The position numbers were made by a program, and so were the translations under genes. This document shows positions 1-9,336 of a DNA stretch of 32,000 bases, in pieces. The notes beneath the pieces are model-generated. The model was not told the DNA's origin, made no database searches, and saw only the letters and a list, made by a program, of their open reading frames with translations. Numbering within the stretch: the first letter of the stretch is position 1; each line of letters begins with the position of its first letter. Origin of the DNA: Mycolicibacterium smegmatis. Its GTDB lineage: Bacteria; Actinomycetota; Actinomycetes; Mycobacteriales; Mycobacteriaceae. The DNA is taken from positions 5,490,001 to 5,522,000 of the forward strand of contig NZ_LN831039.1 of assembly GCF_001457595.1 (NCBI RefSeq). The letters run 5' to 3'.

Positions 1-1353
1 GAGTACAAGCCGATGCTGGACTCGGCGCTCCAGATCGCCGAGCACACCCCGCAGGCGTGCGTCATCCTGCAGCGCGATCAGAAACCCTGCGACCTGATCG
101 AGGGGCGCGACGTCGACTGGCACGAACTGGTGGCCACGGCCGAACCGGCCGATCCGGTCCCGGTGGCCGCCACCGACCCGCTGTACGTGCTGTACACGTC
201 CGGCACCACCGGCAAGCCCAAGGGCATCGTCCGCGACAACGGCGGACACGCGGTGGCGCTGCTGTGGTCGATGCGCAACATCTACGGCATCGAACCCGGC
301 GACGTGTTCTGGACGGCGTCCGACGTGGGCTGGGTGGTCGGGCACTCCTACATCGTGTATGCGCCGCTGATGCTGGGCGCGACAACCGTTCTGTACGAAG
401 GCAAACCGGTCGGCACACCCGACGCGGGCGCCTTCTGGCGCGTCATCTCCGAACACAAGGTGAAGGCGTTGTTCACCGCGCCGACCGCAGTGCGCGCGAT
501 CAAGAAGGAAGACCCCGAAGGCGCGCGCATGCGCGACTACGACCTGTCGAGCCTGAAGTATCTGTTCCAGGCCGGCGAGCGCCTCGATCCGGACACCTAC
601 CACTGGGCCGCCTGGAGACTCGGCAAGCCCGTCATCGACCACTGGTGGCAGACCGAGACAGGCTGGGCGATCGCGGCCAACCCGGCCGGCCTCGAACTCA
701 TGCCGGTCAAGCCCGGTTCGGCGACCGTGCCGATGCCCGGTTACGACGTGCAGATTCTGCGGGCCGACGGCTCCGTCGCCGATCCGAACGAAGAAGGCGC
801 GATCTGCATCAAGCTGCCGCTGCCGCCGGGCACGCTGCCCACCGTGTGGGGCGACGACCAGCGCTACATCTCCTCGTACCTGTCGGCGTTCGAGGGCTAT
901 TACCTCACCGGTGACGGCGGCTACATCGACGAAGACGGCTACCTGTTCGTCATGGGCCGCACCGACGACGTCATCAACGTGGCCGGCCACCGCCTGTCGA
1001 CAGGGTCGATCGAGGCCGTGCTCGCCGAGCATCCCGCGGTCGCCGAGTGTGCCGTGATCGGTGTGGCCGACGAACTCAAGGGGCAGGTGCCGCGAGGGTT
1101 CGTGGTGCTCAAATCCGGTGCGTCCGCCGACAAGCTGGGTGACGAGCTGATCCAGAAGGTACGCGAGAGCATCGGCGCCGTTGCCGTTTTCAAGTCCGTC
1201 GACGTGGTGTCGGCGCTGCCGAAGACCCGCTCGGGCAAGATCCTGCGCAAGACCATGCGCGGTATCGCCGACGGCAAGGACGAGCCCGTGCCCTCGACGA
1301 TCGAGGACCCCTCGGTGCTCGACGACCTCAAGTCGGTGTTGCGCCGGGGCTGA
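1..1353 (+). CDS. prpE: AMP-forming acyl-CoA synthetase (propionate/acetate--CoA ligase family), 5' end cut by the window edge
   Basis: Frame 1 is open from base 1 (EYKP precedes the listed Met at 13). It carries the AMP-binding signature YTSGTTGKPKG. The C-terminal LPKTRSGKILRKTMR...TIEDPSVLDDL tail is closer to PrpE than to Acs as I recall them. Stop TGA at 1351-1353. Confidence 0.8.
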   Translation, partial: EYKPMLDSALQIAEHTPQACVILQRDQKPCDLIEGRDVDWHELVATAEPADPVPVAATDPLYVLYTSGTTGKPKGIVRDNGGHAVALLWSMRNIYGIEPGDVFWTASDVGWVVGHSYIVYAPLMLGATTVLYEGKPVGTPDAGAFWRVISEHKVKALFTAPTAVRAIKKEDPEGARMRDYDLSSLKYLFQAGERLDPDTYHWAAWRLGKPVIDHWWQTETGWAIAANPAGLELMPVKPGSATVPMPGYDVQILRADGSVADPNEEGAICIKLPLPPGTLPTVWGDDQRYISSYLSAFEGYYLTGDGGYIDEDGYLFVMGRTDDVINVAGHRLSTGSIEAVLAEHPAVAECAVIGVADELKGQVPRGFVVLKSGASADKLGDELIQKVRESIGAVAVFKSVDVVSALPKTRSGKILRKTMRGIADGKDEPVPSTIEDPSVLDDLKSVLRRG

Positions 1354-3271
1354 TCCAGGCGCGGTTGCTCAGCAGGCGAAGGCCGTTGAGCGCCACCAAG
1401 ATCGTCGACCCTTCATGTCCGGCCACACCGAGCGGTAACGGCAAGTGGCCGAACAGGTCCCACAGGACCAGCGTGGTGATCGCGGCGCCGGCCATCACGA
1501 GGTTCGCGATGACGACGCGTCGGGCCCGCCGCGCCAGTGCGATCACCGCGGGGACGGTGGCGAGTTCGTCGCGGATGGTGACGACGTCGGCGGTCTGGAC
1601 CGTCAGGTCCGCACCCGCCCTGCCCATCGCGATCGAGGTGTGCGCGGCGGCCATCGCGGGTGCGTCGTTGACGCCGTCGCCCACCACGAGCACGTGCGTG
1701 TTGTCGCGCTGAAGTTTCTGCACCGCAGCAGCTTTGCCGTCGGGGAGGAGTTCGGCGTGCACGTCGGCGATGCCGGCCTCCTCCGCCAGTCGTCCGGCGG
1801 CGCGACGGTTGTCACCGGTCAGCAGCATGGGTGGGTGTTTGGTCAACTGCGCCAACTGCATCACGGCGGCAGGAGCGTCGGGCCGCAGCCGGTCGGCCAG
1901 GCCGATGACACCGACGGGTAGCCCGTCCTCGAGGACGACGACGGCGGTGCCACCGTCGTTCTCGATCGCGGCGCAGTGCTCGCGCACGGCCCCGTCCTTC
2001 CCCGCGAAAGCTGCGGGGCTGACGACCTCGACGACGTGCCCGGCCACACGCGCGCGCACGCCCCGGCCCGGAAGTGCCGTGAAGTCACCGGCCTCAGGTA
2101 CCACGCGCCCGCGCGCCGCCGCGACGATCGCGCGCCCCAATGGATGCTCACTGAACTGTTCTGCGGCAGCGGCCATCCCGAGCACATCGGCACCGTCAAT
2201 GAGCACGGTCACCCGCGAGATCACAGGCTCCCCCGACGTCAACGTCCCGGTCTTGTCGAGCACCACCACGTCGGTATCGGCCAACCGCTCCATCGCGACC
2301 GCAGATTTCACCAGCACGCCGTGCCTGCTCGCGTTCGCGATCGCCGACAACAGCGGCGGCATGGTCGCGAGCACCACCGCGCACGGCGACGCCACGATCA
2401 TGAACGTCATGGCGCGCAACAGCGTCGAGCGCAAATCGGCGCCGAACATCAGCGGCACGGTGAACAACGCGAGGGTCGCGACAACCACGCCCGCCGAGTA
2501 GCGCTGCTCGATCTTCTCGATGAACAGTTGCGTGGTGGCCTTGGTCGCCGATGCCTCGGCCACCATCGCCACTATGCGCGCCACCACGGTCTGCGAGGGT
2601 TCGCGCGTCACCTCGACGCGCAGCGCACCCGAACCGTTGACGGTCCCGGCGAACACGTCGTCGCCGACGTCCTTCGCGGCGGGCAGTGGCTCCCCGGTGA
2701 TCGAGGACTGGTCGACCTCCGAGGCACCGCCGATCACTGTGCCGTCAGCCGAGATTCGCTCGCCCGGACGCACCACGATGACGTCGCCGGGCCGCAGATC
2801 GGCGGCGGCGACCACACGTTGGGACCCGTCGCCGAGGAGGGTGGCGTGCTCGGGAGCGAGGTCGAGCAACCCGCGCACCGACCGCTCGGTCCTTGTGGTC
2901 GCCACATCTTCGAGCGCGCCCGACGTCGCAAAGATGACGATCAACAGCGCACCGTCGAACACCTGCCCGATGGTGGCCGCACCGATCGCTGCGACGATCA
3001 TCAGCAGGTCGACGTCGAGTGTGCGGTTGCGTAAGGCCCGCACGCCGACCCACGCGGGTTCCCAGCCACCGACGACGTAGCAGGCCAGGTACAACGTCCA
3101 GACCACGGCCTGCGGTGCTCCGAGGAGTTGCGCGGCCAGTCCGGTGAGAAACAGTGCGAGTGCCGCGGCGGCCCACCGAACGGAGGGCACCGTCCACAGC
3201 CAACCGCCGGATCGCGGTCGCGCCGGGCGGGCCGAAGGTGCGGGTTCGACGGCGGGATACAGCGCGGTCAT
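1328..3271 (-). CDS. ctpD: P1B-4-type heavy-metal (Co2+/Ni2+) exporting P-type ATPase
   Basis: 647-aa ORF with DKTGTLT phosphorylation site, TGDN and GDGVNDAP motifs. It has the transmembrane SPC motif (IVASPCAVV) and HEGST in the last TM segment, and no N-terminal CxxC metal-binding domain. It is divergent from an NmtR-type sensor, like ctpJ-nmtR in M. tuberculosis. Its position relative to eno fits M. smegmatis CtpD from memory. Its 3' end overlaps prpE by 26 nt in convergent orientation. Confidence 0.85.
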   Translation of the reverse strand: MTALYPAVEPAPSARPARPRSGGWLWTVPSVRWAAAALALFLTGLAAQLLGAPQAVVWTLYLACYVVGGWEPAWVGVRALRNRTLDVDLLMIVAAIGAATIGQVFDGALLIVIFATSGALEDVATTRTERSVRGLLDLAPEHATLLGDGSQRVVAAADLRPGDVIVVRPGERISADGTVIGGASEVDQSSITGEPLPAAKDVGDDVFAGTVNGSGALRVEVTREPSQTVVARIVAMVAEASATKATTQLFIEKIEQRYSAGVVVATLALFTVPLMFGADLRSTLLRAMTFMIVASPCAVVLATMPPLLSAIANASRHGVLVKSAVAMERLADTDVVVLDKTGTLTSGEPVISRVTVLIDGADVLGMAAAAEQFSEHPLGRAIVAAARGRVVPEAGDFTALPGRGVRARVAGHVVEVVSPAAFAGKDGAVREHCAAIENDGGTAVVVLEDGLPVGVIGLADRLRPDAPAAVMQLAQLTKHPPMLLTGDNRRAAGRLAEEAGIADVHAELLPDGKAAAVQKLQRDNTHVLVVGDGVNDAPAMAAAHTSIAMGRAGADLTVQTADVVTIRDELATVPAVIALARRARRVVIANLVMAGAAITTLVLWDLFGHLPLPLGVAGHEGSTILVALNGLRLLSNRAWISPGATPT

Positions 3272-3305
3272 CGAGCACCCTTCGTTGGATTGACGAACGC
3301 ATACG

Positions 3306-3335
3306 TTTATACATGTAAAGATTTAAATGTATCAA
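3306..3335. promoter_or_regulatory. Imperfect 30-bp palindrome in the AT-rich ctpD/nmtR divergent promoter; candidate ArsR/NmtR operator
   Basis: TTTATACATGTAAAGATTTAAATGTATCAA has half-sites TTTATACAT and ATGTATCAA separated by 12 nt. It sits in the only AT-rich stretch of the 96-bp intergenic region between two divergent metal genes. Confidence 0.45.
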
Positions 3336-3367
3336 TGCTCACTTGCGTGCCATGCGAGAATGGGCGC

Positions 3368-3721
3368 ATGGGTCATGGTGTCGAGGGGCGTTCCACGCCC
3401 GCCGCATCGCTCGATGCCGCGTCAGCGGTCAAGGTCGCCGAGACACTGCAGGCCCTGGCGTCTCCCAACCGATTGCTGATCTTGACTCGGCTGCGCGAAT
3501 CCCCCTGCTCGGTCACCGAACTGTCGGCGGCGGTCGGGATGGAGCAACCTGCGGTGTCCAACCAGTTGCGCCTGTTGCGGACGCTGGGACTGGTGACCGG
3601 AGACCGGTCGGGGCGCAACATCGTCTACCGGCTCTACGACAGCCACGTCGCGCAACTGCTCGATGAGGCGATCTACCACATCGAACATCTGCGACTCGGC
3701 GTTCGCGACGGCACCGCCTGA
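3368..3721 (+). CDS. nmtR: ArsR/SmtB-family Ni(II)/Co(II)-sensing repressor, NmtR type
   Basis: Starting at ATG 3368 gives a 117-aa protein, MGHGVEGR..., whose N-terminus is identical to M. tuberculosis NmtR as I recall it. It has a winged-helix core (LASPNRLLIL...ELSAAVGMEQPAVSNQLRLLR). Asp91, His93, His104 and His107 fall at exactly the alpha5-site positions described for NmtR. The longer ORF-track start at 3128 would overlap ctpD and the promoter. Confidence 0.85.
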   Translation: MGHGVEGRSTPAASLDAASAVKVAETLQALASPNRLLILTRLRESPCSVTELSAAVGMEQPAVSNQLRLLRTLGLVTGDRSGRNIVYRLYDSHVAQLLDEAIYHIEHLRLGVRDGTA

Positions 3722-3941
3722 GCCAGATCCGGCTGCGGGCAAGAGAATTTCATTTGCCGTCACACACTCGTCACACATCTGAGGCTGCGGCGGCAAAACG
3801 CCGGGCGATCACTGGAATCCTTTATTTTCGCCCTGAGCCGAACTATCGTTGAGTTGTTATAAGTTGATATCCGCCTGAGCTCGGGCGATTTGCTACCGCG
3901 CAGTACCAGCGACGCTTGGGCACGTTAGGAGTTGAGCAACG

Positions 3942-4040
3942 ATGCGCATCGCAACCAAGGGAAACTGCACCTGTCGCTGCAACGCATGCGACGGAGGCCA
4001 CCACTGCGGAAACCCGCCGAACTGCAACGTGCGGCGCTGA
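3942..4040 (+). CDS. Unannotated 32-aa Cys/His-rich mini-protein MRIATKGNCTCRCNACDGGHHCGNPPNCNVRR (metallothionein-like, or a Cys-rich leader peptide)
   Basis: ATG at 3942 follows AGGAG (3927-3931) with a 10-nt spacer. An in-frame TGA two codons upstream fixes the start. It has 6 Cys and 2 His spaced CxCxCxxC-x3-HHC-x5-C. Third positions are G/C in 25 of 31 codons. Stop TGA at 4038-4040 is followed by two stem-loops. It is shorter than the 60-aa ORF-track cut-off. Confidence 0.55.
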   Translation: MRIATKGNCTCRCNACDGGHHCGNPPNCNVRR

Positions 4041-4047
4041 CGCCGTA

Positions 4048-4084
4048 GGTGACCTGCCGCCGACCATCGCGCGGCAGGTCATCC
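4048..4084 (+). terminator. Stem-loop directly after the Cys-rich ORF (11-13 bp stem, no U tract)
   Basis: TGACCTGCCGC (4050-4060) pairs perfectly with GCGGCAGGTCA (4071-4081) around a 10-nt loop. Confidence 0.5.
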
Positions 4085-4093
4085 CATACCTCT

Positions 4094-4134
4094 GAGCCCA
4101 TCGATCACGCCGATCGATCGGGCTCTTTCGGTTT
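4094..4134 (+). terminator. Second stem-loop with a T-rich tail (intrinsic-terminator-like)
   Basis: GAGCCCATCGATC (4094-4106) pairs with GATCGATCGGGCTC (4112-4125), giving 13 bp with one bulged C and a 5-nt loop. TTTCGGTTT follows. Confidence 0.5.
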
Positions 4135-4158
4135 CACGCCAGACACTCCGCGTGTCCG

Positions 4159-4164
4159 TATGCT
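4159..4164 (+). promoter_or_regulatory. Possible -10 hexamer TATGCT for a leaderless transcript starting at GTG 4171
   Basis: It fits the mycobacterial TANNNT -10 pattern and ends 6 nt before the GTG start of the ZIP-like gene. No Shine-Dalgarno sequence lies in between. Confidence 0.3.
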
Positions 4165-4170
4165 CACGCT

Positions 4171-4872
4171 GTGCTCACCGCGCTCCTCTGGGGCCTCGTC
4201 GCTGCGTCCTCTCTGCTCGTCGGAGCCGTGGCCGGCACCGTCCGCGACTGGAACGAGCGTCTGGTCGGTCTGGTCCTCGGCTTCGGTGCCGGCGCGCTGA
4301 TCTCCAGCATCTCGTTCGAACTCGCCGAGGAAGGCGTTCGGGTCAGCGGTGCTCTGGCCGTCGCACTCGGCCTGGCAATCGGCGCCGTCGTGTTCTACGT
4401 GGCCGACAAGACGGTGGATCGCATGGGCCGCACCGGTGGCGGGGCGGGCATGCCCCTGCTGTTGGGGGCGCTTCTCGATGGCATACCGGAACAGGCCGTG
4501 CTCGGTATCGGCATCGCGGGCGGCGCCGGGGTGAGCATGGCACTCCTGGTGGCGATCTTCGTGTCGAACCTGCCCGAGTCGATCGGATCGGCCAGTGACA
4601 TGAGGAGCGCCGGCCACCCGGTACGCACGATTCTCGGTGGCTGGGCGGCGATCTCGGCACTGTGCGCGGTAGCCACCGTGGGCGGCTACCAGTTGCAGAA
4701 GGTCGCCGGTGCGGCGCTGCAGGGCGGGATCAACGGATTCGCCGCGGGGGCACTGCTTGTCATGCTCGTCGGGTCGATGATTCCCGAGGCCACGCAGAAG
4801 GCCCGTGAGAATGCCGGACTCGCGGCAGTTCTCGGATTCGCCGTCGCCGCCGGTCTGTCGCTCGCCACCTGA
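4171..4872 (+). CDS. ZIP-family (ZupT/GufA-like) divalent-metal permease, non-canonical motif variant
   Basis: 233-aa polytopic membrane protein that aligns by eye with E. coli ZupT. DGIPEQ and SNLPES stand where ZupT has HNFPEG and HNIPEG, and GSMIPEA stands where ZupT has DELMPLA. GTG start at 4171. Confidence 0.75.
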   Translation: MLTALLWGLVAASSLLVGAVAGTVRDWNERLVGLVLGFGAGALISSISFELAEEGVRVSGALAVALGLAIGAVVFYVADKTVDRMGRTGGGAGMPLLLGALLDGIPEQAVLGIGIAGGAGVSMALLVAIFVSNLPESIGSASDMRSAGHPVRTILGGWAAISALCAVATVGGYQLQKVAGAALQGGINGFAAGALLVMLVGSMIPEATQKARENAGLAAVLGFAVAAGLSLAT

Positions 4873-4896: not shown

Positions 4897-5682
4897 GTGG
4901 CTCCCCAATGGCACCTGGGCCCCGTGACCGTCGGGGTCCACGGATTGTTCGTCGCGCTCGCAGTGTTCGCCGCGGTCCTGGTGTTCAGCCACGAGGCCCG
5001 TCGACGCGGCGCGGTCAACGAGCAGTCGATCGTGGCGGTGGCCGGTGCGCTGATCGGCGGCGCGATCGGCATGCGACTGTCGGGCTGGGCCCAGCACCTC
5101 GATCTCAGCGCGAATCCGAGTCTGGCACAGGCCTGGGAGTTCGGCTCCCGCAGCATCCTCGGTGGACTGCTGGGCGCCTACATCGGCGTACACGTCGCCA
5201 AACGTCTCGGCGGCTACCGCGGCAAGACCGGCGATCTGTTCGCACCGGCGGTCGCGCTGGGCATGGCCATCGGCCGCATCGGTTGCCTGCTCACCGAGGC
5301 CCCCGGGCGGCCCACGAACCTGCCATGGGGCATCCACGCGCCGGCCAGCACTCCGGAATGTCCCGCGTGCCTGACGGGTCAGGCCATGCATCCGTCATTC
5401 GTGTACGAGATCGTGTTCCAGCTGGTTGCTTTCGCGGTGCTGCTGTGGCTGCGCAACCGCATCACCCACCCCGGCGAGTTGTTCGTCATCTACATCGCCG
5501 CCTACGCGGTGTTCCGATTCTTCGTCGAGTTCTTCCGCGCCAACGAAACAGTGTGGCTGGATCTCACCCGGCCACAATGGTTCCTGCTGCCCACGTTGCT
5601 GATCATCGGGTTTCGGCTGTGCTACGGCTACCGGCACGGTTACTATCGGCGCGCAGCCCGCAGTGAGGAAGTGCCGGTATGA
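4897..5682 (+). CDS. Lgt-family protein (prolipoprotein diacylglyceryl transferase paralogue) with an altered active-site motif
   Basis: It aligns along its length with E. coli Lgt: N-terminal GPVTVGVHGLF, GRIGC (canonical GRLGN), MHPSFVYE (HPSQLYE), and YAVFRFFVEFFR (YGAFRIIVEFFR). GTG start lies 24 nt after the ZIP stop, and the stop overlaps the next start (ATGA). Confidence 0.85.
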   Translation: MAPQWHLGPVTVGVHGLFVALAVFAAVLVFSHEARRRGAVNEQSIVAVAGALIGGAIGMRLSGWAQHLDLSANPSLAQAWEFGSRSILGGLLGAYIGVHVAKRLGGYRGKTGDLFAPAVALGMAIGRIGCLLTEAPGRPTNLPWGIHAPASTPECPACLTGQAMHPSFVYEIVFQLVAFAVLLWLRNRITHPGELFVIYIAAYAVFRFFVEFFRANETVWLDLTRPQWFLLPTLLIIGFRLCYGYRHGYYRRAARSEEVPV

Positions 5683-6320
5683 CCCCTCCCCCATCACAGC
5701 CACCCGAGCCACCGCCTGCTGCCGGTGAACCGCCAGAAGACGACGGGCCGCAAGACATTCCACCCGCCTACGAGTACGACGTGCGCCCTCCCGGCGCACC
5801 GCACGTACCGCCGTATGCCCCTCCGGCCGGGCCTCCACAAGGGCCTCCACAAGGGCCTCCACAAGGGCCTCCGCAGGGGCCTCCGCCGACACCGCCACCA
5901 CCGCCGCCGGCCGGACCACCCATCGGGTATCCACCACCGCCGCCGGGATACTCGCAGCCCTACCCGGGGGACTATCCGTCGTCACCCCCGCCGCCCGGAT
6001 ACGGTAGGCCACCGTCACGGATCTCGGTGGCCATGGTCATCATCGGCCCGTTCATCTACGCCGCGATCAACCTGGTGGTGGGGTTCATGGCGCTCATCGC
6101 CGGGGGCATGCTCGAAACTCAGACCAGCAACTCCAGCATCATCTTCGGCGTCGCCGCGCTCGGCCTGCTGCTCATCGCGTTCGGCGGAGGCACACTCCTG
6201 CTCCGCCGCAACAACCCTCAAGCACGCGGCCTCGGCATCGGGCTGATGATCGGCTGGGCGCTCATGTCCGTACTCACCGCCGGGTTCTGCACCGGCATCA
6301 ACCCGGAGATGTATACCTGA
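5679..6320 (+). CDS. Proline-rich N-terminal domain fused to a 4-TM membrane domain; unknown function
   Basis: 213 aa. Residues 1-112 are about half Pro and include (GPPQ)4. The C-terminal 100 aa contain four hydrophobic segments. ATG 5679 overlaps the lgt-like stop, and the stop lies 1 nt before the radical-SAM ATG. Confidence 0.7.
   Translation: MTPPPSQPPEPPPAAGEPPEDDGPQDIPPAYEYDVRPPGAPHVPPYAPPAGPPQGPPQGPPQGPPQGPPPTPPPPPPAGPPIGYPPPPPGYSQPYPGDYPSSPPPPGYGRPPSRISVAMVIIGPFIYAAINLVVGFMALIAGGMLETQTSNSSIIFGVAALGLLLIAFGGGTLLLRRNNPQARGLGIGLMIGWALMSVLTAGFCTGINPEMYT
5829..5888 (+). repeat. Five tandem 12-nt units (GGGCCTCCACAA x3, then GGGCCTCCGCAG and GGGCCTCCGCCG) encoding GPPQ repeats
   Basis: Read directly from the sequence. 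The repeats are in frame within the Pro-rich CDS. Confidence 0.9.
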
Positions 6321-6321
6321 T

Positions 6322-7890
6322 ATGACCACCGGCATGGGGCTGCGCGGTGACCGCCTGCACCGTTACGTCACCGCGTTCTGCCCGCACTGCCACGCCGAAG
6401 CGCCCGAGCGCCCACTGGCGGACGTGCAGCGGCTCGCCGCGATGCTGATCGAGCGCGACGGACGGATCTGGCTCGAACGTGGCTGCCCGACACACGGTTT
6501 GGTGCGCACCCTGTACGACGAGGATCCCGAGATCCTCTCCTACCTCGAGGAGTGGACGGCACCCACCAAGGCCCACACCCCCGATGTCGCAGGCAACTTC
6601 GACCCGGTCCCGTCGGCATATCTGCGCGGCCTGCCGGAGATGCAGACCCAGCACACCTGCATCCTGCTGGAGGACATCTCCGAGGCGTGCAACCTGCGCT
6701 GCCCCACGTGTTTCACCGACAGTTCCCCCGACCTGCGCAACGTGGTCCCGGTGGCCGAGGTGCTCGCCAACATCGACCAACGCCTCGCGCGCGAGAACGG
6801 CCGCATCGACGTGCTGATGCTCAGCGGTGGCGAGCCCACGCTGCACCCGCAACTACCCACACTGCTGGCCGAGCTGGTGAAGCGGCCCATCACCCGGATC
6901 CTGGTGAACAGCAACGGCGTTCGCATCGCCAACGATGACGCTCTGCTCGACCTGCTGACGCTGCACCGAGAACGCGTCGAGGTGTATCTGCAGTACGACG
7001 GGTTGTCCGCCGAGACACACCGCCACCACCGCGGCGGCGATCTCGGAAGGCTGAAACAGCAGGCCCTGCAACGGCTGTCCGAGCGCGAGATCTTCACGAC
7101 CCTGGTGATGACCGCGACCCTGGGCGTCAACGACCACGAGATCGGGGCCATGGTCCAACTGGCGCTCGACACCCCTTACGTCGGCGGGCTGACCATCCAG
7201 CCCCAGTTCGGTTCGGGCCGTTCGGGTGCGATCGACCCGATGGAGAGGCTCACGCACACAGGCGTCCTGAAACGTATGGGTCCCCAGACCGACGGCGCGG
7301 TCACGTGGCGCGATCTCACCGCGCTGCCGTGCTCGCACCCGCACTGCTGCTCGGTGGGGTACCTGGTGCGCGACGACAGCGACCGGTGGCGCTCGCTGGT
7401 ATCGCTCATCGGAGCCGAGAGCCTCAAGGACAAGCTGGGACTGGTGGCCAACCGCATCGCCGACACCGAGATTCCACGCGAACTCCGCCTGGCCGTGCAG
7501 GAATCGCTGCTCGGACTGCTCTCCGAGCAGTCCTCGTTGTCCCATCCGGAGATCGGTGACGTGTGGCGCAACATCTGTGAGAACTGCGATCTGGGCATGT
7601 CGACGCTGTTGACGCTGGCGTCGTCGGCGCTTCCCGGCCGCAGGCGCAAGATCCGCAGACTCCTCGGCGAGCGCGTCGTGCGCCTGACCGTCAAACCGTT
7701 CATGGACATGTCGACGATGATCGAGGAGCGCCTCATCCAGTGCTGCGTGCACGTCGGGACCCGCTCGACCGAACAGCATCAATGCGCGCCGTTCTGCGCC
7801 GTACAGGCCTGGCCCGCACTGAGCCGCCAACGCCTGTCGCTCGCCTCCCAAGCCACGATGCCCGCGTTACCCCTCATCGAGATCCGATGA
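6322..7890 (+). CDS. Radical SAM enzyme with an N-terminal rubredoxin/zinc-ribbon-like module and C-terminal auxiliary Cys clusters (COG1964 / class-D / Tes-GDGT-MAS-like architecture)
   Basis: CNLRCPTC (C123-x3-C127-x2-C130) and SGGEP (168-172) are present. The N-terminus has C20-x2-C23...C55-x2-H58. Extra Cys lie at 337/342/343, 419/422 and 474/475/488/492, the last group in the pattern CCVH...CAPFC. VKPFMD is also present. Confidence 0.85.
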   Translation: MTTGMGLRGDRLHRYVTAFCPHCHAEAPERPLADVQRLAAMLIERDGRIWLERGCPTHGLVRTLYDEDPEILSYLEEWTAPTKAHTPDVAGNFDPVPSAYLRGLPEMQTQHTCILLEDISEACNLRCPTCFTDSSPDLRNVVPVAEVLANIDQRLARENGRIDVLMLSGGEPTLHPQLPTLLAELVKRPITRILVNSNGVRIANDDALLDLLTLHRERVEVYLQYDGLSAETHRHHRGGDLGRLKQQALQRLSEREIFTTLVMTATLGVNDHEIGAMVQLALDTPYVGGLTIQPQFGSGRSGAIDPMERLTHTGVLKRMGPQTDGAVTWRDLTALPCSHPHCCSVGYLVRDDSDRWRSLVSLIGAESLKDKLGLVANRIADTEIPRELRLAVQESLLGLLSEQSSLSHPEIGDVWRNICENCDLGMSTLLTLASSALPGRRRKIRRLLGERVVRLTVKPFMDMSTMIEERLIQCCVHVGTRSTEQHQCAPFCAVQAWPALSRQRLSLASQATMPALPLIEIR

Positions 7891-8147
7891 GCGAACCCGT
7901 CGGGCAACCGTACGATCCGCTACGACTGTGTGTATATGCCACGGTCGCGTTGCTCGCGTGGCTTCTCGGCCCTTGGGCCGTCGCGGGGTTCGCCGCACTG
8001 GGCCTCGTCGGCTACGTCCGGGCGCGACGAGCAGGGCTGATGCACAGCAAATGCGCCTTGCGCGATACGCGGCTGGTGATCGGGTACCTTGGCGTGATCG
8101 CGGCGGTCGCGGTAGCTGCGATCGTGGCCAGCTATTGGCCTCGCTGA
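7887..8147 (+). CDS. Small (86-aa) hydrophobic membrane protein, unknown function
   Basis: ATG 7887 overlaps the radical-SAM stop (ATGA). The product MSEPVGQPYDPLRLCVYATVALLAWLLGPWAVAGFAALGLVGYV...VIGYLGVIAAVAVAAIVASYW has 2-3 TM segments. The upstream part of the listed ORF (from 7740) lies inside the radical-SAM gene. Confidence 0.6.
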   Translation: MSEPVGQPYDPLRLCVYATVALLAWLLGPWAVAGFAALGLVGYVRARRAGLMHSKCALRDTRLVIGYLGVIAAVAVAAIVASYWPR

Positions 8148-8298
8148 GCGGATCCGAGGCTGACGGCTGCGTAAGAGAACTCTCAGGGGCCCCCGGCAGG
8201 TTTCACAGAATCCTCTAATACTGCTAACTTCGCTAATGAAGTGGGCATCCCCACTGTCGGGGGCCTGCAGTAAATCGGAGAACTCAGGAGTGAATGCC

Positions 8299-9336
8299 TT
8301 GAAGATCACGAATCTCAGTACGGCCGTGGCCGCTGCGGCCGTCGCCGCCGCCGCCATCCTCGGCACTGCGCCTGCCGCGTTCGGTGATGCCAGCGCCGTC
8401 ACCACCTCGACGCTCGGTAGCGCGGCAAAGCTGAACAACGGTGACGTCGTCCAGGCCTGGACCGTGACCGACCTCAAGCCCAGCAGCGACACGATCCCCT
8501 ACGAGGTCCGCGGCAAGCTGTGGGAGGTCACCGCCACCGATGAGGCCGTCCAGGGCAACGTGACCCCCATCGTCTCCAACTTCAACGTGCGGGCTGCCGA
8601 CGGCACCAACTACCGCGCACTGTTCCAGGTCGCCACCCCGCAGGGCGTGAACCCGTCGACCATCCCGCAGGGCGAGAAGGCCAGCGGCAAGATCTACTTC
8701 GACGTGACCGGCCCCGAGCCCACCACCGTCGTCTACAACGCCGGCGGCAAGGACCTGCTGGTGTGGGACAAGCCCGCCGCGTCCACGACCGCCCCGAGCG
8801 GTACCGGCCAGAGCCGCCCGGCCACGGCGTCGTCCCCGGCGACCGCCGCTCCCGCGGCCGCGGCCGCGGCCGAGGCCGAGTCCGAGGCTGTGACCGACGC
8901 AGAGACGGAGGCCACCCCGGCTCCGGCCGCGGCGTCGACCGCCGAGGGCGGCACCGAGGCCACCCCGGCCGGCGCGGGCAGCCGCGCCACCGACCTGCCT
9001 GCCGCCACCGCGGCGGAGGCCGAAACCGAGGCGACCGCGACCGACGCCGAGACCACCCCGGTGACCGAAGAGACCCCGGCCGCCCCCGCTCCCGAAGGTA
9101 CGACGCCGGTTTCGCTCGGCACGCCGGCCGCCGAAGGCACCCCGGCCGTCGAGGGAGCACCCGCCGGCGCCTCGGCGGGCAACGTCGCGACCGCGGTTCC
9201 GCCCGCCGCCCCGGCCGAGGGCGCTCCGGCCGAGGTTGCCGATCCCGCGCTGGTCCCGGCCGGTGTCCAGCCGACCACCACCGTGCCCGCCCCGGCGCCC
9301 ACCACGGCTCCGGTCAGCCACGGCCCCGCTGCCTGA
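8299..9336 (+). CDS. Secreted MPT63/MPB63-like (DUF1942) protein with an approximately 180-aa acidic Ala/Pro/Thr/Glu-rich C-terminal extension
   Basis: WTVTDLKPSSDTIPYEVRGKLWEVTATDEAVQGNVTPIVSNFNVRAADGTNYRALF...IPQGEKASGKIYFDVTGPEPT matches M. tuberculosis MPT63 almost motif for motif. The signal peptide is KITNLSTAVAAAAVAAAAILGTAPAAFG. I place the start at TTG 8299 (GGAG 8 nt upstream); GTG 8290 or ATG 8236 remain possible. Confidence 0.8.
   Translation: MKITNLSTAVAAAAVAAAAILGTAPAAFGDASAVTTSTLGSAAKLNNGDVVQAWTVTDLKPSSDTIPYEVRGKLWEVTATDEAVQGNVTPIVSNFNVRAADGTNYRALFQVATPQGVNPSTIPQGEKASGKIYFDVTGPEPTTVVYNAGGKDLLVWDKPAASTTAPSGTGQSRPATASSPATAAPAAAAAAEAESEAVTDAETEATPAPAAASTAEGGTEATPAGAGSRATDLPAATAAEAETEATATDAETTPVTEETPAAPAPEGTTPVSLGTPAAEGTPAVEGAPAGASAGNVATAVPPAAPAEGAPAEVADPALVPAGVQPTTTVPAPAPTTAPVSHGPAA

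Follow-up and report, generated by a model that had tools for sequence, protein, structure and literature searches.

The stretch of mycobacterial DNA analysed here (contig NZ_LN831039.1; 32,000 nucleotides (nt), hereafter "the window") encodes, at positions 6322–7890 of the + strand, a 522-amino-acid (aa) radical S-adenosylmethionine (SAM) protein that we call rSAM. Sequence models and a predicted structure place rSAM in the Tes/GDGT-MAS/TrsS (HMPTM) lineage, as a member that is neither a Tes nor a TrsS orthologue. Together with a paralogue of Lgt, the prolipoprotein diacylglyceryl transferase, and a small membrane protein, smB, rSAM makes up a conserved three-gene core, and this combination points to a membrane-lipid modification system. 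Our preferred reading, which we hold tentatively and with slightly less than even confidence, is that rSAM is a soluble or peripheral enzyme from a distinct bacterial clade in the lineage of Tes, the tetraether synthase of archaea, and that it acts within a three-gene membrane module on the acyl tails of glycerolipids. The novelty lies in a clade that is as yet uncharacterised, whose set of cofactors is altered and whose three-gene setting is fixed.

The rSAM gene begins with ATG in a window of 62–70% GC, and the nearest named protein is from Mycolicibacterium goodii (95% identity). The product has no hydrophobic or transmembrane segment (maximum Kyte-Doolittle score 1.15). Pfam finds two domains in it, Radical_SAM (PF04055, 70 bits) and Zn_ribbon_HMPTM (PF23545, 45 bits). 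Since both exceed their gathering cut-offs, the motifs in rSAM represent more than chance. PF23545 describes the N-terminal zinc ribbon of HMPTM/MJ0619/GDGT-MAS, and it covers the N-terminal Cys/His knuckles of rSAM. The top NCBIfam model is that for TrsS (NF045646), which aligns with residues 35–494 and scores 189.5 bits against a cut-off of 490. The Tes model (NF045702) scores 150.1 bits and falls short of its equivalog cut-off of 450. The remaining NCBIfam radical SAM models align only with the core of rSAM, at about 25–44 bits.

Structural comparison leads to the same lineage. The sole full-length match to a solved structure by sequence is 7TOL, GDGT-MAS itself, which aligns with rSAM residues 23–494 (E 1e-33) and is recovered at E 4e-56 with a 65-sequence profile. 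An AlphaFold2 model of rSAM (predicted local distance difference test, pLDDT, 78; predicted template modelling score, pTM, 0.84) matches 7TOM/7TOL in Foldseek with template modelling (TM) scores of 0.70/0.74 over 537 columns (E 4e-31), and rSAM shares their four-domain fold. The next Foldseek matches, SkfB, anSME, SuiB and others, cover the core only, with TM scores of about 0.3–0.35. Likewise, the NCBIfam models for SPASM/twitch enzymes align only with residues from about 115 to 285, at 25–37 bits against cut-offs of 170–850. We rejected a SPASM/twitch peptide maturase on the grounds of these core-only matches. An earlier note, made from the sequence alone, had suggested the Tes/GDGT-MAS lineage for this protein and had judged it not to be of SPASM/twitch type. 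The first of these suggestions is borne out by Pfam, NCBIfam, the sequence and profile matches to 7TOL, and the fold. The second agrees with models and structures that match the core alone and reveal no SPASM/twitch domain. Profile hidden Markov model (HMM) and structure comparison, set beforehand as the test, placed rSAM with GDGT-MAS and not in a SPASM/twitch clade.

Within its lineage, the clade that contains rSAM stands well apart. Neither rSAM nor any of ten relatives reaches the cut-off for Tes or TrsS. Relatives from the rSAM clade score 147–194 bits with the Tes model, and by NCBIfam scores the clade is the most divergent branch, with 147–233 bits compared with 292–361 bits in other bacterial branches. 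We conclude that rSAM is not a Tes or TrsS orthologue because its scores are only about one third of the respective cut-offs, because the N-terminal auxiliary cluster motif of GDGT-MAS is missing, and because the GDGT-MAS residues Met439 and Tyr459 are replaced.

PMC9433317 describes four metal sites in GDGT-MAS: a rubredoxin-type Fe with the ligands C9-x2-C12-x20-C33-x2-H36; an N-terminal cluster ([4Fe-4S]N) whose ligands are a His together with C73, C77 and C80; the radical SAM cluster; and a C-terminal cluster ([4Fe-4S]C) with a labile Met439. For residue mapping, the sequence of GDGT-MAS was reconstructed from the printed alignment and placed in an L-INS-i alignment with 20 diverse homologues. 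Single-sequence and profile HMMER alignments misplace C337–C343 relative to GDGT-MAS; L-INS-i resolves the match at HxHC. Conservation was scored across 84 rSAM orthologues with 37–89% identity.

Direct scanning places Cys at rSAM residues 20, 23, 55, 113, 123, 127, 130, 337, 342, 343, 419, 422, 474, 475, 488 and 492. The motifs quoted in the earlier note lie where it had put them: C20-x2-C23, C55-x2-H58, C123-x3-C127-x2-C130, SGGEP (168–172), QTQHTC (from 108), VKPFMD (from 457), CCVH (from 474) and PFC (from 490). Its list of cysteines lacked C113, which is invariant. Also invariant in all 84 orthologues are C20, C23, C55, H58, H111, C123, C127, C130, C337, C342, C419, C422, K458, M461, C474, C475 and H477. 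C492 is found in 83, the one exception being an alignment gap. Conservation among orthologues, which the note had made a check on its own reading, thus holds for most of the extra cysteines but not for C343 (61/84) and C488 (29/84), which are variable.

The N-terminal knuckles, which had been taken for a rubredoxin or zinc-ribbon element, match both PF23545 and the iron ligands of GDGT-MAS. C20, C23, C55 and H58 (6379–6495, + strand) align residue for residue with GDGT-MAS C9, C12, C33 and H36, consistent with a rubredoxin-like mononuclear metal site. The radical SAM motif C123-x3-C127-x2-C130 corresponds to GDGT-MAS C98, C102 and C105; it is preceded by H111 and C113, which are absent from GDGT-MAS (6652–6711 for the whole element, + strand). 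The SGGEP motif for SAM binding (GGE; 6823–6837, + strand) has invariant G169 and G170, and E171 is Glu in 83 of the 84 orthologues and Asp in one. GDGT-MAS residues F106, R210, Q268 and R275, which contact SAM or 5ʹ-deoxyadenosine, are kept as F131, R237, Q293 and R300. With CX3CX2C, GGE and these contacts all retained, the SAM-cleavage apparatus of rSAM is intact.

The auxiliary sites differ more from those of GDGT-MAS. In the C-terminal half, C337-S-H-P-H-C342-C343 (7330–7350, + strand) contains the equivalent of GDGT-MAS C338, namely C342, identified through the common HxHC motif; GDGT-MAS has a 20-residue insertion right before this motif. The segment VKPFMD...C474-C475-V-H...C492 (7690–7797, + strand) aligns as the counterpart of the C-terminal auxiliary [4Fe-4S] region, with C474/C475 matching GDGT-MAS C455/C456 and C492 matching C470. 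The N-terminal auxiliary cluster motif is a different matter. The aligned rSAM residues are V96, R102, P105 and Q108, and none of the 84 orthologues has Cys at the cluster positions. More distant bacterial homologues have the motif (GCPxDCGLCxxH). Judged by the alignment, therefore, [4Fe-4S]N of GDGT-MAS is a site that the rSAM clade no longer has. Two further pairs of cysteines have no equivalent in GDGT-MAS. C113 and C337 are common to other bacterial branches, and C419-x2-C422 (7576–7587, + strand), present in 84/84 members of the Lgt-linked clade, is specific to that clade and absent from the more distant bacterial branches.

Beyond the radical SAM and rubredoxin-like sites there are eight conserved cysteines, a number that suffices for the C-terminal cluster and a further site. 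From homology to GDGT-MAS, we predict that rSAM has a rubredoxin-like mononuclear metal site (C20, C23, C55, H58), a SAM-cleaving [4Fe-4S] cluster (C123, C127, C130) and a C-terminal auxiliary [4Fe-4S] cluster (C342, C474 or C475, and C492); the fourth ligand of the last might be C337 or M461. The extra invariant residues C113, C337, C419 and C422 could build a replacement site. Of the cofactors that the earlier note had attributed to the lineage, the radical SAM cluster and the rubredoxin iron hold; a single auxiliary cluster does not, since GDGT-MAS has two and the N-terminal one is missing here.

The rSAM gene is part of a run of four tightly packed genes on the + strand, in the order Lgt-like, smA, rSAM and smB, and all of these except rSAM encode membrane proteins. 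The Lgt-like stop codon overlaps the smA start codon in an ATGA, the rSAM stop codon overlaps the smB start codon in the same way, and smA ends 1 nt before the rSAM ATG. A scan for promoters and terminators gave nothing useful. smB (7887–8147) is an 86-aa protein with two long hydrophobic stretches. Of 84 loci, 74 carry it on the same strand, where it mostly overlaps the rSAM stop codon, and it has two invariant cysteines. C15 (7929–7931) is present in 73/74 sequences and C56 (8052–8054) in 72/74, and the exceptions are gaps; an alignment across phyla also shows the two cysteines.

The second small membrane protein, smA (5679–6320, + strand), is less sharply defined. Its secure part is the C-terminal 95 aa (6033–6320), with three hydrophobic segments, and this is the only form called by gene callers on contigs that encode an identical rSAM protein. 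The long form has an additional Pro-rich N-terminal half that includes a 12-nt PPQG repeat. GC content at third codon positions (GC3) is 0.90 in the C-terminal part and only 0.62 in the Pro-rich part, and translation of the latter is uncertain for this reason. The repeat (5829–5884, + strand) consists of 4.7 copies of the tandem unit GGGCCTCCACAA. Two copies fewer are found in L001 and L003, loci with an identical rSAM protein, and this represents an in-frame 24-nt length polymorphism. An smA-related open reading frame (ORF) was detected in at least 33 of 84 loci, a lower bound because the protein is very short and hydrophobic. Counts for the small proteins come from searches with positional filters; iterated HMMs were discarded because they drifted into alternative-frame ORFs of GC-rich DNA.

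The Lgt-like gene (4897–5682, + strand) encodes a 261-aa protein with a Pfam LGT match of 134 bits. It scores 100.3 bits with TIGR00544, the model for canonical lgt (cut-off 118.9), and misses every NCBIfam lgt cut-off. Its closest known relative is E. coli Lgt (5AZB), with which it has in common the LGT fold and, in E. coli numbering, R143, G154, Y235, R239, E243 and R246. The kept residues R143, G154, R239, E243 and R246 are those for phosphate binding and gating. In contrast to E. coli Lgt, the paralogue has a short head region, sub-cut-off NCBIfam scores and the substitutions Y26H, H103L and N146C, and thus does not retain the canonical catalytic residues. N146C is Cys130 of the paralogue (5284–5286), and a Cys occupies this position in all 78 rSAM-linked Lgt paralogues. 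Across the same 78 sequences, R143 and G154 are invariant, R239, E243 and R246 are found in 77, Y26 is replaced by His in 58, and H103 is mostly replaced by an aliphatic residue. The family signature can be written GRxGC...TE...HPS...RxxxExxR, and GRWGC also occurs in Lgt genes beside more distant rSAM homologues (L088, L091). A C-P-x-C motif (residues 155–158; 5359–5370) is present in the loop, shortened in the paralogue, that stands in for the head region of E. coli Lgt; 46 of 77 rSAM-linked paralogues have the motif, which makes it common but not universal. The operon with Lgt that the earlier note had described stands as far as the packed and overlapping genes are concerned. The Lgt in it, however, is by its residue pattern a divergent paralogue and not the housekeeping enzyme. 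MSMEG_5408, the second Lgt homologue of M. smegmatis, has matching substitutions and is presumed to have low Lgt activity, and N146C has been reported before in some Lgt homologues, outside any radical SAM context (PMC13251419). The same substitutions suggest that the Lgt paralogue in the window is the MSMEG_5408 orthologue.

The association of these genes is widespread. A pattern scan that took one genome per species found rSAM relatives in at least 569 genomes from about six phyla. The 80 best loci are from Abditibacteriota/Armatimonadota, Chloroflexota, Eremiobacterota, Actinomycetota, Gemmatimonadota and Verrucomicrobiota, and the Actinomycetota among them are Mycobacterium, Nocardia, Microbacterium, Agromyces, Arthrobacter, Acidimicrobiia and Rubrobacter. 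An Lgt-like ORF adjoins rSAM in 80 of 87 loci, nearly always on the same strand. Seven of the 87 have no Lgt-like match; for at least four of these (L005, L017, L020 and L060), whose contigs stop at the rSAM gene or slightly beyond it, the absence is uninformative. Mycobacteria and Chloroflexota have the genes in the order Lgt-smA-rSAM-smB; in Abditibacteria the order is rSAM-Lgt-smB and in Microbacteriaceae rSAM-smB-Lgt. That the genes stay linked despite this reshuffling is an argument for a link in function. When flanking ORFs were clustered all against all, only three families proved to be shared across the loci: rSAM (84 loci), Lgt-like (77 loci) and smB (73 loci). The only other cluster of that size consists of alternative-frame ORFs that overlap the rSAM gene, and the rest reflect clade-specific synteny in no more than 19 loci. 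Hence, the arrangement with Lgt, which the earlier note had expected to be unusual, is the rule for a clade found in at least 569 genomes.

What might the three-gene module do? Most likely, rSAM would perform radical chemistry, and its targets would be the acyl tails of a glycerolipid that the Lgt paralogue handles. In PMC9433317, GDGT-MAS is described as binding two glycerolipids, and E. coli phospholipids were found to co-purify with it. A lipid substrate for rSAM is supported because GDGT-MAS binds glycerolipids and because the Lgt partner keeps R143, R239, E243 and R246. We propose that the Lgt paralogue would bind a phosphatidylglycerol-type lipid and, as an option, might use a thiol, either its own C130 or a Cys of smB, to hold or transfer the diacylglyceryl unit of that lipid. 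rSAM would then cleave SAM to give the 5ʹ-deoxyadenosyl radical, which would take a hydrogen from an unactivated carbon of the acyl tail. Finally, the auxiliary cluster would capture the lipid radical, as in GDGT-MAS, and a new C–C or C–S bond would be formed at the tail. This scheme builds on the observed homology, fold, cofactor-motif conservation and gene linkage; from these we infer that the substrate is a lipid, what the thiols do and which bond arises, and for the bond step we draw on the sulfur–carbon intermediate that PMC9433317 describes for GDGT-MAS.

Several points weigh against this proposal. Met439 and Tyr459 of GDGT-MAS, described as strictly conserved in 1000 archaeal homologues (PMC9433317), are replaced in rSAM by K458 (84/84) and by V478 (V, T or S among the orthologues). 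This objection is tempered by the finding that Met439 and Tyr459 variants of GDGT-MAS remain active (PMC9433317). The AlphaFold2 model of rSAM is poor around residues 377–434, the region that includes C419-x2-C422. The active site of E. coli Lgt faces the outer leaflet and a radical SAM enzyme must be cytoplasmic; hence, a direct hand-over between the Lgt paralogue and rSAM is not obvious. Moreover, the lipids of mycobacteria and Microbacterium are well studied, and we know of no tail-coupled or membrane-spanning lipids reported from them.

The strongest rival, although we consider it unlikely, is that rSAM acts on a protein. Its substrate would be smB or the Lgt paralogue, in which it would cross-link an invariant Cys, through a thioether or otherwise, much like a sactisynthase or another maturase of peptides that are made by ribosomes and modified after translation (RiPPs), and the Lgt paralogue would lipidate the same protein. 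A small ORF that overlaps the rSAM stop codon is a typical layout for a peptide-maturase operon; smB offers two invariant cysteines and the Lgt paralogue an invariant cysteine in its active site; canonical Lgt acts on a protein Cys; and the second-tier structural matches of rSAM, SkfB, anSME and SuiB, are peptide maturases. However, those matches cover only the generic core (TM about 0.35), with no SPASM/twitch domain, and the sole full-length structural relative of rSAM is a lipid enzyme. In addition, smB is conserved over its full length as a hydrophobic membrane protein with no leader/core organisation, and it was not detected beside the more distant Lgt-linked homologues.

Two other readings also involve the coupling of acyl tails, and we regard each as improbable. 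In the first, lipids are stapled through thiol anchors. The Lgt paralogue would load a diacylglyceryl unit onto smB, at a Cys, or onto itself, at Cys130, and rSAM would join the tails by a C–C bond or attach them by a C–S bond to a second Cys. The product would be a membrane protein covalently cross-linked to lipid or, by an oxygen-tolerant route in soil bacteria that live aerobically, a membrane-spanning lipid. In the second, about as doubtful, rSAM is an orthodox membrane-spanning lipid synthase, equivalent to Tes or Mss, that joins two phospholipid tails into lipids of the diabolic-acid or branched glycerol dialkyl glycerol tetraether (brGDGT) type, with the Lgt paralogue as no more than a dock. 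In its favour, rSAM resembles GDGT-MAS in homology and fold, the role of brGDGT synthase has been proposed for bacterial Tes homologues (PMC8941075), the enzyme of aerobic producers of membrane-spanning lipids is still unknown (PMC13159169), and the module is common in aerobic soil phyla. Nonetheless, rSAM scores far below the Tes cut-off, its clade is the branch of the lineage that has diverged most, the N-terminal cluster is missing, and the invariant cysteines of the Lgt paralogue and smB would be left unexplained. No Acidobacteria occur among the 80 best loci. Mycolicibacterium, Nocardia, Microbacterium and Arthrobacter are not known to make membrane-spanning lipids.

A class D radical SAM methylase ("7,8-dihydro-6-hydroxymethylpterin dimethyltransferase") or MoaA-like cofactor enzyme, as the JGI label on several homologues and one NCBI record ("MoaA-like") would have it, is very improbable: the pterin label derives from MJ0619, which has been re-assigned as GDGT-MAS with a structure that makes pterin binding unlikely (PMC9433317), MoaA models, whose cut-off is 284 bits, reach only about 40 bits and match no more than the rSAM core, and the hosts offer no context of a methanopterin pathway, while membrane proteins make up the conserved partners. 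We therefore rejected both labels as inherited from the old MJ0619 annotation or from core similarity. A role in anti-phage defence was also rejected, since PADLOC reported a weak similarity of rSAM to the viperin core and nothing for its partners.

Comparison with named relatives helps to place the clade. GDGT-MAS/Tes (MJ0619; 7TOL, 7TOM; NF045702) has the same order of zinc-ribbon/rubredoxin domain, radical SAM core and C-terminal cluster domain as rSAM, and the two share the fold, the rubredoxin ligands, the radical SAM motif, the SAM contacts and three or four C-terminal cysteines. They are only about 20–25% identical. rSAM lacks the N-terminal CX3CX2C and His and the 20-residue segment before HxHC, and it has K458/V478 and the additional invariant residues C113, C337, C419 and C422. 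Unlike GDGT-MAS, the rSAM clade has bacterial hosts with ester lipids and has the Lgt paralogue and smB as obligatory genomic partners. The TrsS radical SAM (seleno)protein, whose model is the best curated match for rSAM, lies on the same bacterial side of the lineage and is likewise uncharacterised; a single mention in the table of a selenoprotein review gave the family name only and no function. Branches that score nearer to TrsS and Tes keep the N-terminal cluster motif, in contrast to the rSAM clade; P0163 and P0191, whose neighbours are methyltransferases, belong to these branches. Mss, the synthase of membrane-spanning lipids in Thermotoga and Thermoanaerobacter, may be a functional analogue, in that it is a radical SAM enzyme that couples acyl tails in bacteria (PMC13159169, PMC13459092). 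However, Mss belongs to a different radical SAM family that is confined to anaerobes, and we distinguish it from rSAM by its published description rather than by its sequence (PMC13159169). According to the authors of that study, Tes homologues are absent from Mss hosts (PMC13159169).

Across the wider lineage, partners and auxiliary sites vary. The locus of P0150 (40% identity) has an Lgt-small-small-rSAM-small arrangement. P0184 (32% identity; L091, positions 481–2022), from a planctomycete branch, keeps the N-terminal cluster motif, and its gene overlaps an Lgt gene. This protein has lost the equivalents of C342, C474 and C492 and has a Cys-rich insert, SRSCCGSGDCCGPN. Hence, the auxiliary sites appear to be evolutionarily plastic across the lineage. 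At the loci of P0163 and P0191, class-I methyltransferases take the place of Lgt as partners. The methyltransferase at the P0191 locus (L092) has a weak match to CMAS, a lipid methyltransferase family, and a DsbD-like membrane protein (DsbD_TM) is encoded there too. Small membrane proteins with CC motifs (e.g. AIGCCVGP, LLCCVSP) flank the methyltransferase-linked branches (L089, 4371–4775; L092, 169–558 and 3440–3772), such that these branches have a thiol-rich membrane partner set that differs from that of the Lgt-linked clade. Lgt and methyltransferase partners both fit a membrane-lipid substrate. At the locus of a 64%-identical relative (L004), a class-I SAM methyltransferase gene (898–1602) lies 3 nt upstream of the Lgt paralogue, which hints that the two kinds of partner can co-occur.

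Other genes flank the module in the window. Upstream is a metal-homeostasis cluster (1328–4872) with genes for a P-type ATPase (1328–3271, − strand), an ArsR-family helix-turn-helix regulator of the ArsR/SmtB type (about 3368–3721, + strand) and a ZIP-like membrane protein of 233 aa that has no Pfam match (4171–4872, + strand). Between the regulator and the ZIP-like gene is a small Cys/His-rich ORF, MRIATKGNCTCRCNACDGGHHCGNPPNCNVRR (3942–4040, + strand; 32 aa, with 7 Cys and 2 His), which could encode a metallothionein-like or metal-sensing peptide. Only 24 nt separate the end of the ZIP-like gene from the start of the Lgt-like gene. Homologues of the ZIP-like gene were found only in L001 and L003, which have an identical rSAM protein, and in one other Mycobacterium locus, L076; none was called in L002, a contig that also has an identical rSAM protein. 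With its homologues confined to L001, L003 and L076, the ZIP-like gene was rejected as a member of the module. Directly downstream of the module is a gene for a DUF1942 (MPT63-like) protein with a long, low-complexity C-terminal tail rich in Ala, Pro, Thr and Glu (8236–9336, + strand); the length of this protein varies from 335 to 366 aa among related contigs.

In previous work, bacterial Tes homologues appear only in general terms, as candidates for brGDGT synthesis (PMC8941075). Neither mycobacteria nor Lgt are mentioned in a 2026 review of radical SAM enzymes that modify lipids, and we found no link between an Lgt paralogue and a radical SAM enzyme in the literature searched. Searches with the likely M. 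smegmatis locus tags MSMEG_5407, MSMEG_5409 and MSMEG_5410 returned nothing relevant.

Tes/GDGT-MAS is the only characterised member of its lineage, and its chemistry is unusual: it couples sp3 carbons to each other through an iron–sulfur cluster. The clade described here is large and has been ignored so far; its cofactor set is a different one and, judging from its fixed partners, the substrate may be a lipid or lipoprotein. Through the module, the puzzling second M. smegmatis homologue of Lgt (MSMEG_5408-type, with N146C), which has so far been treated only as a weak or redundant Lgt, would also gain a concrete role. Because the module occurs in fast-growing, genetically tractable relatives of M. 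smegmatis, the hypothesis is directly testable. If the product proves to be a tail-coupled lipid, the module would bear on how aerobic bacteria make membrane-spanning lipids, and if thiol-anchored stapling were to yield a membrane-spanning lipid, it would bear on the origin of bacterial tetraether-type lipids.

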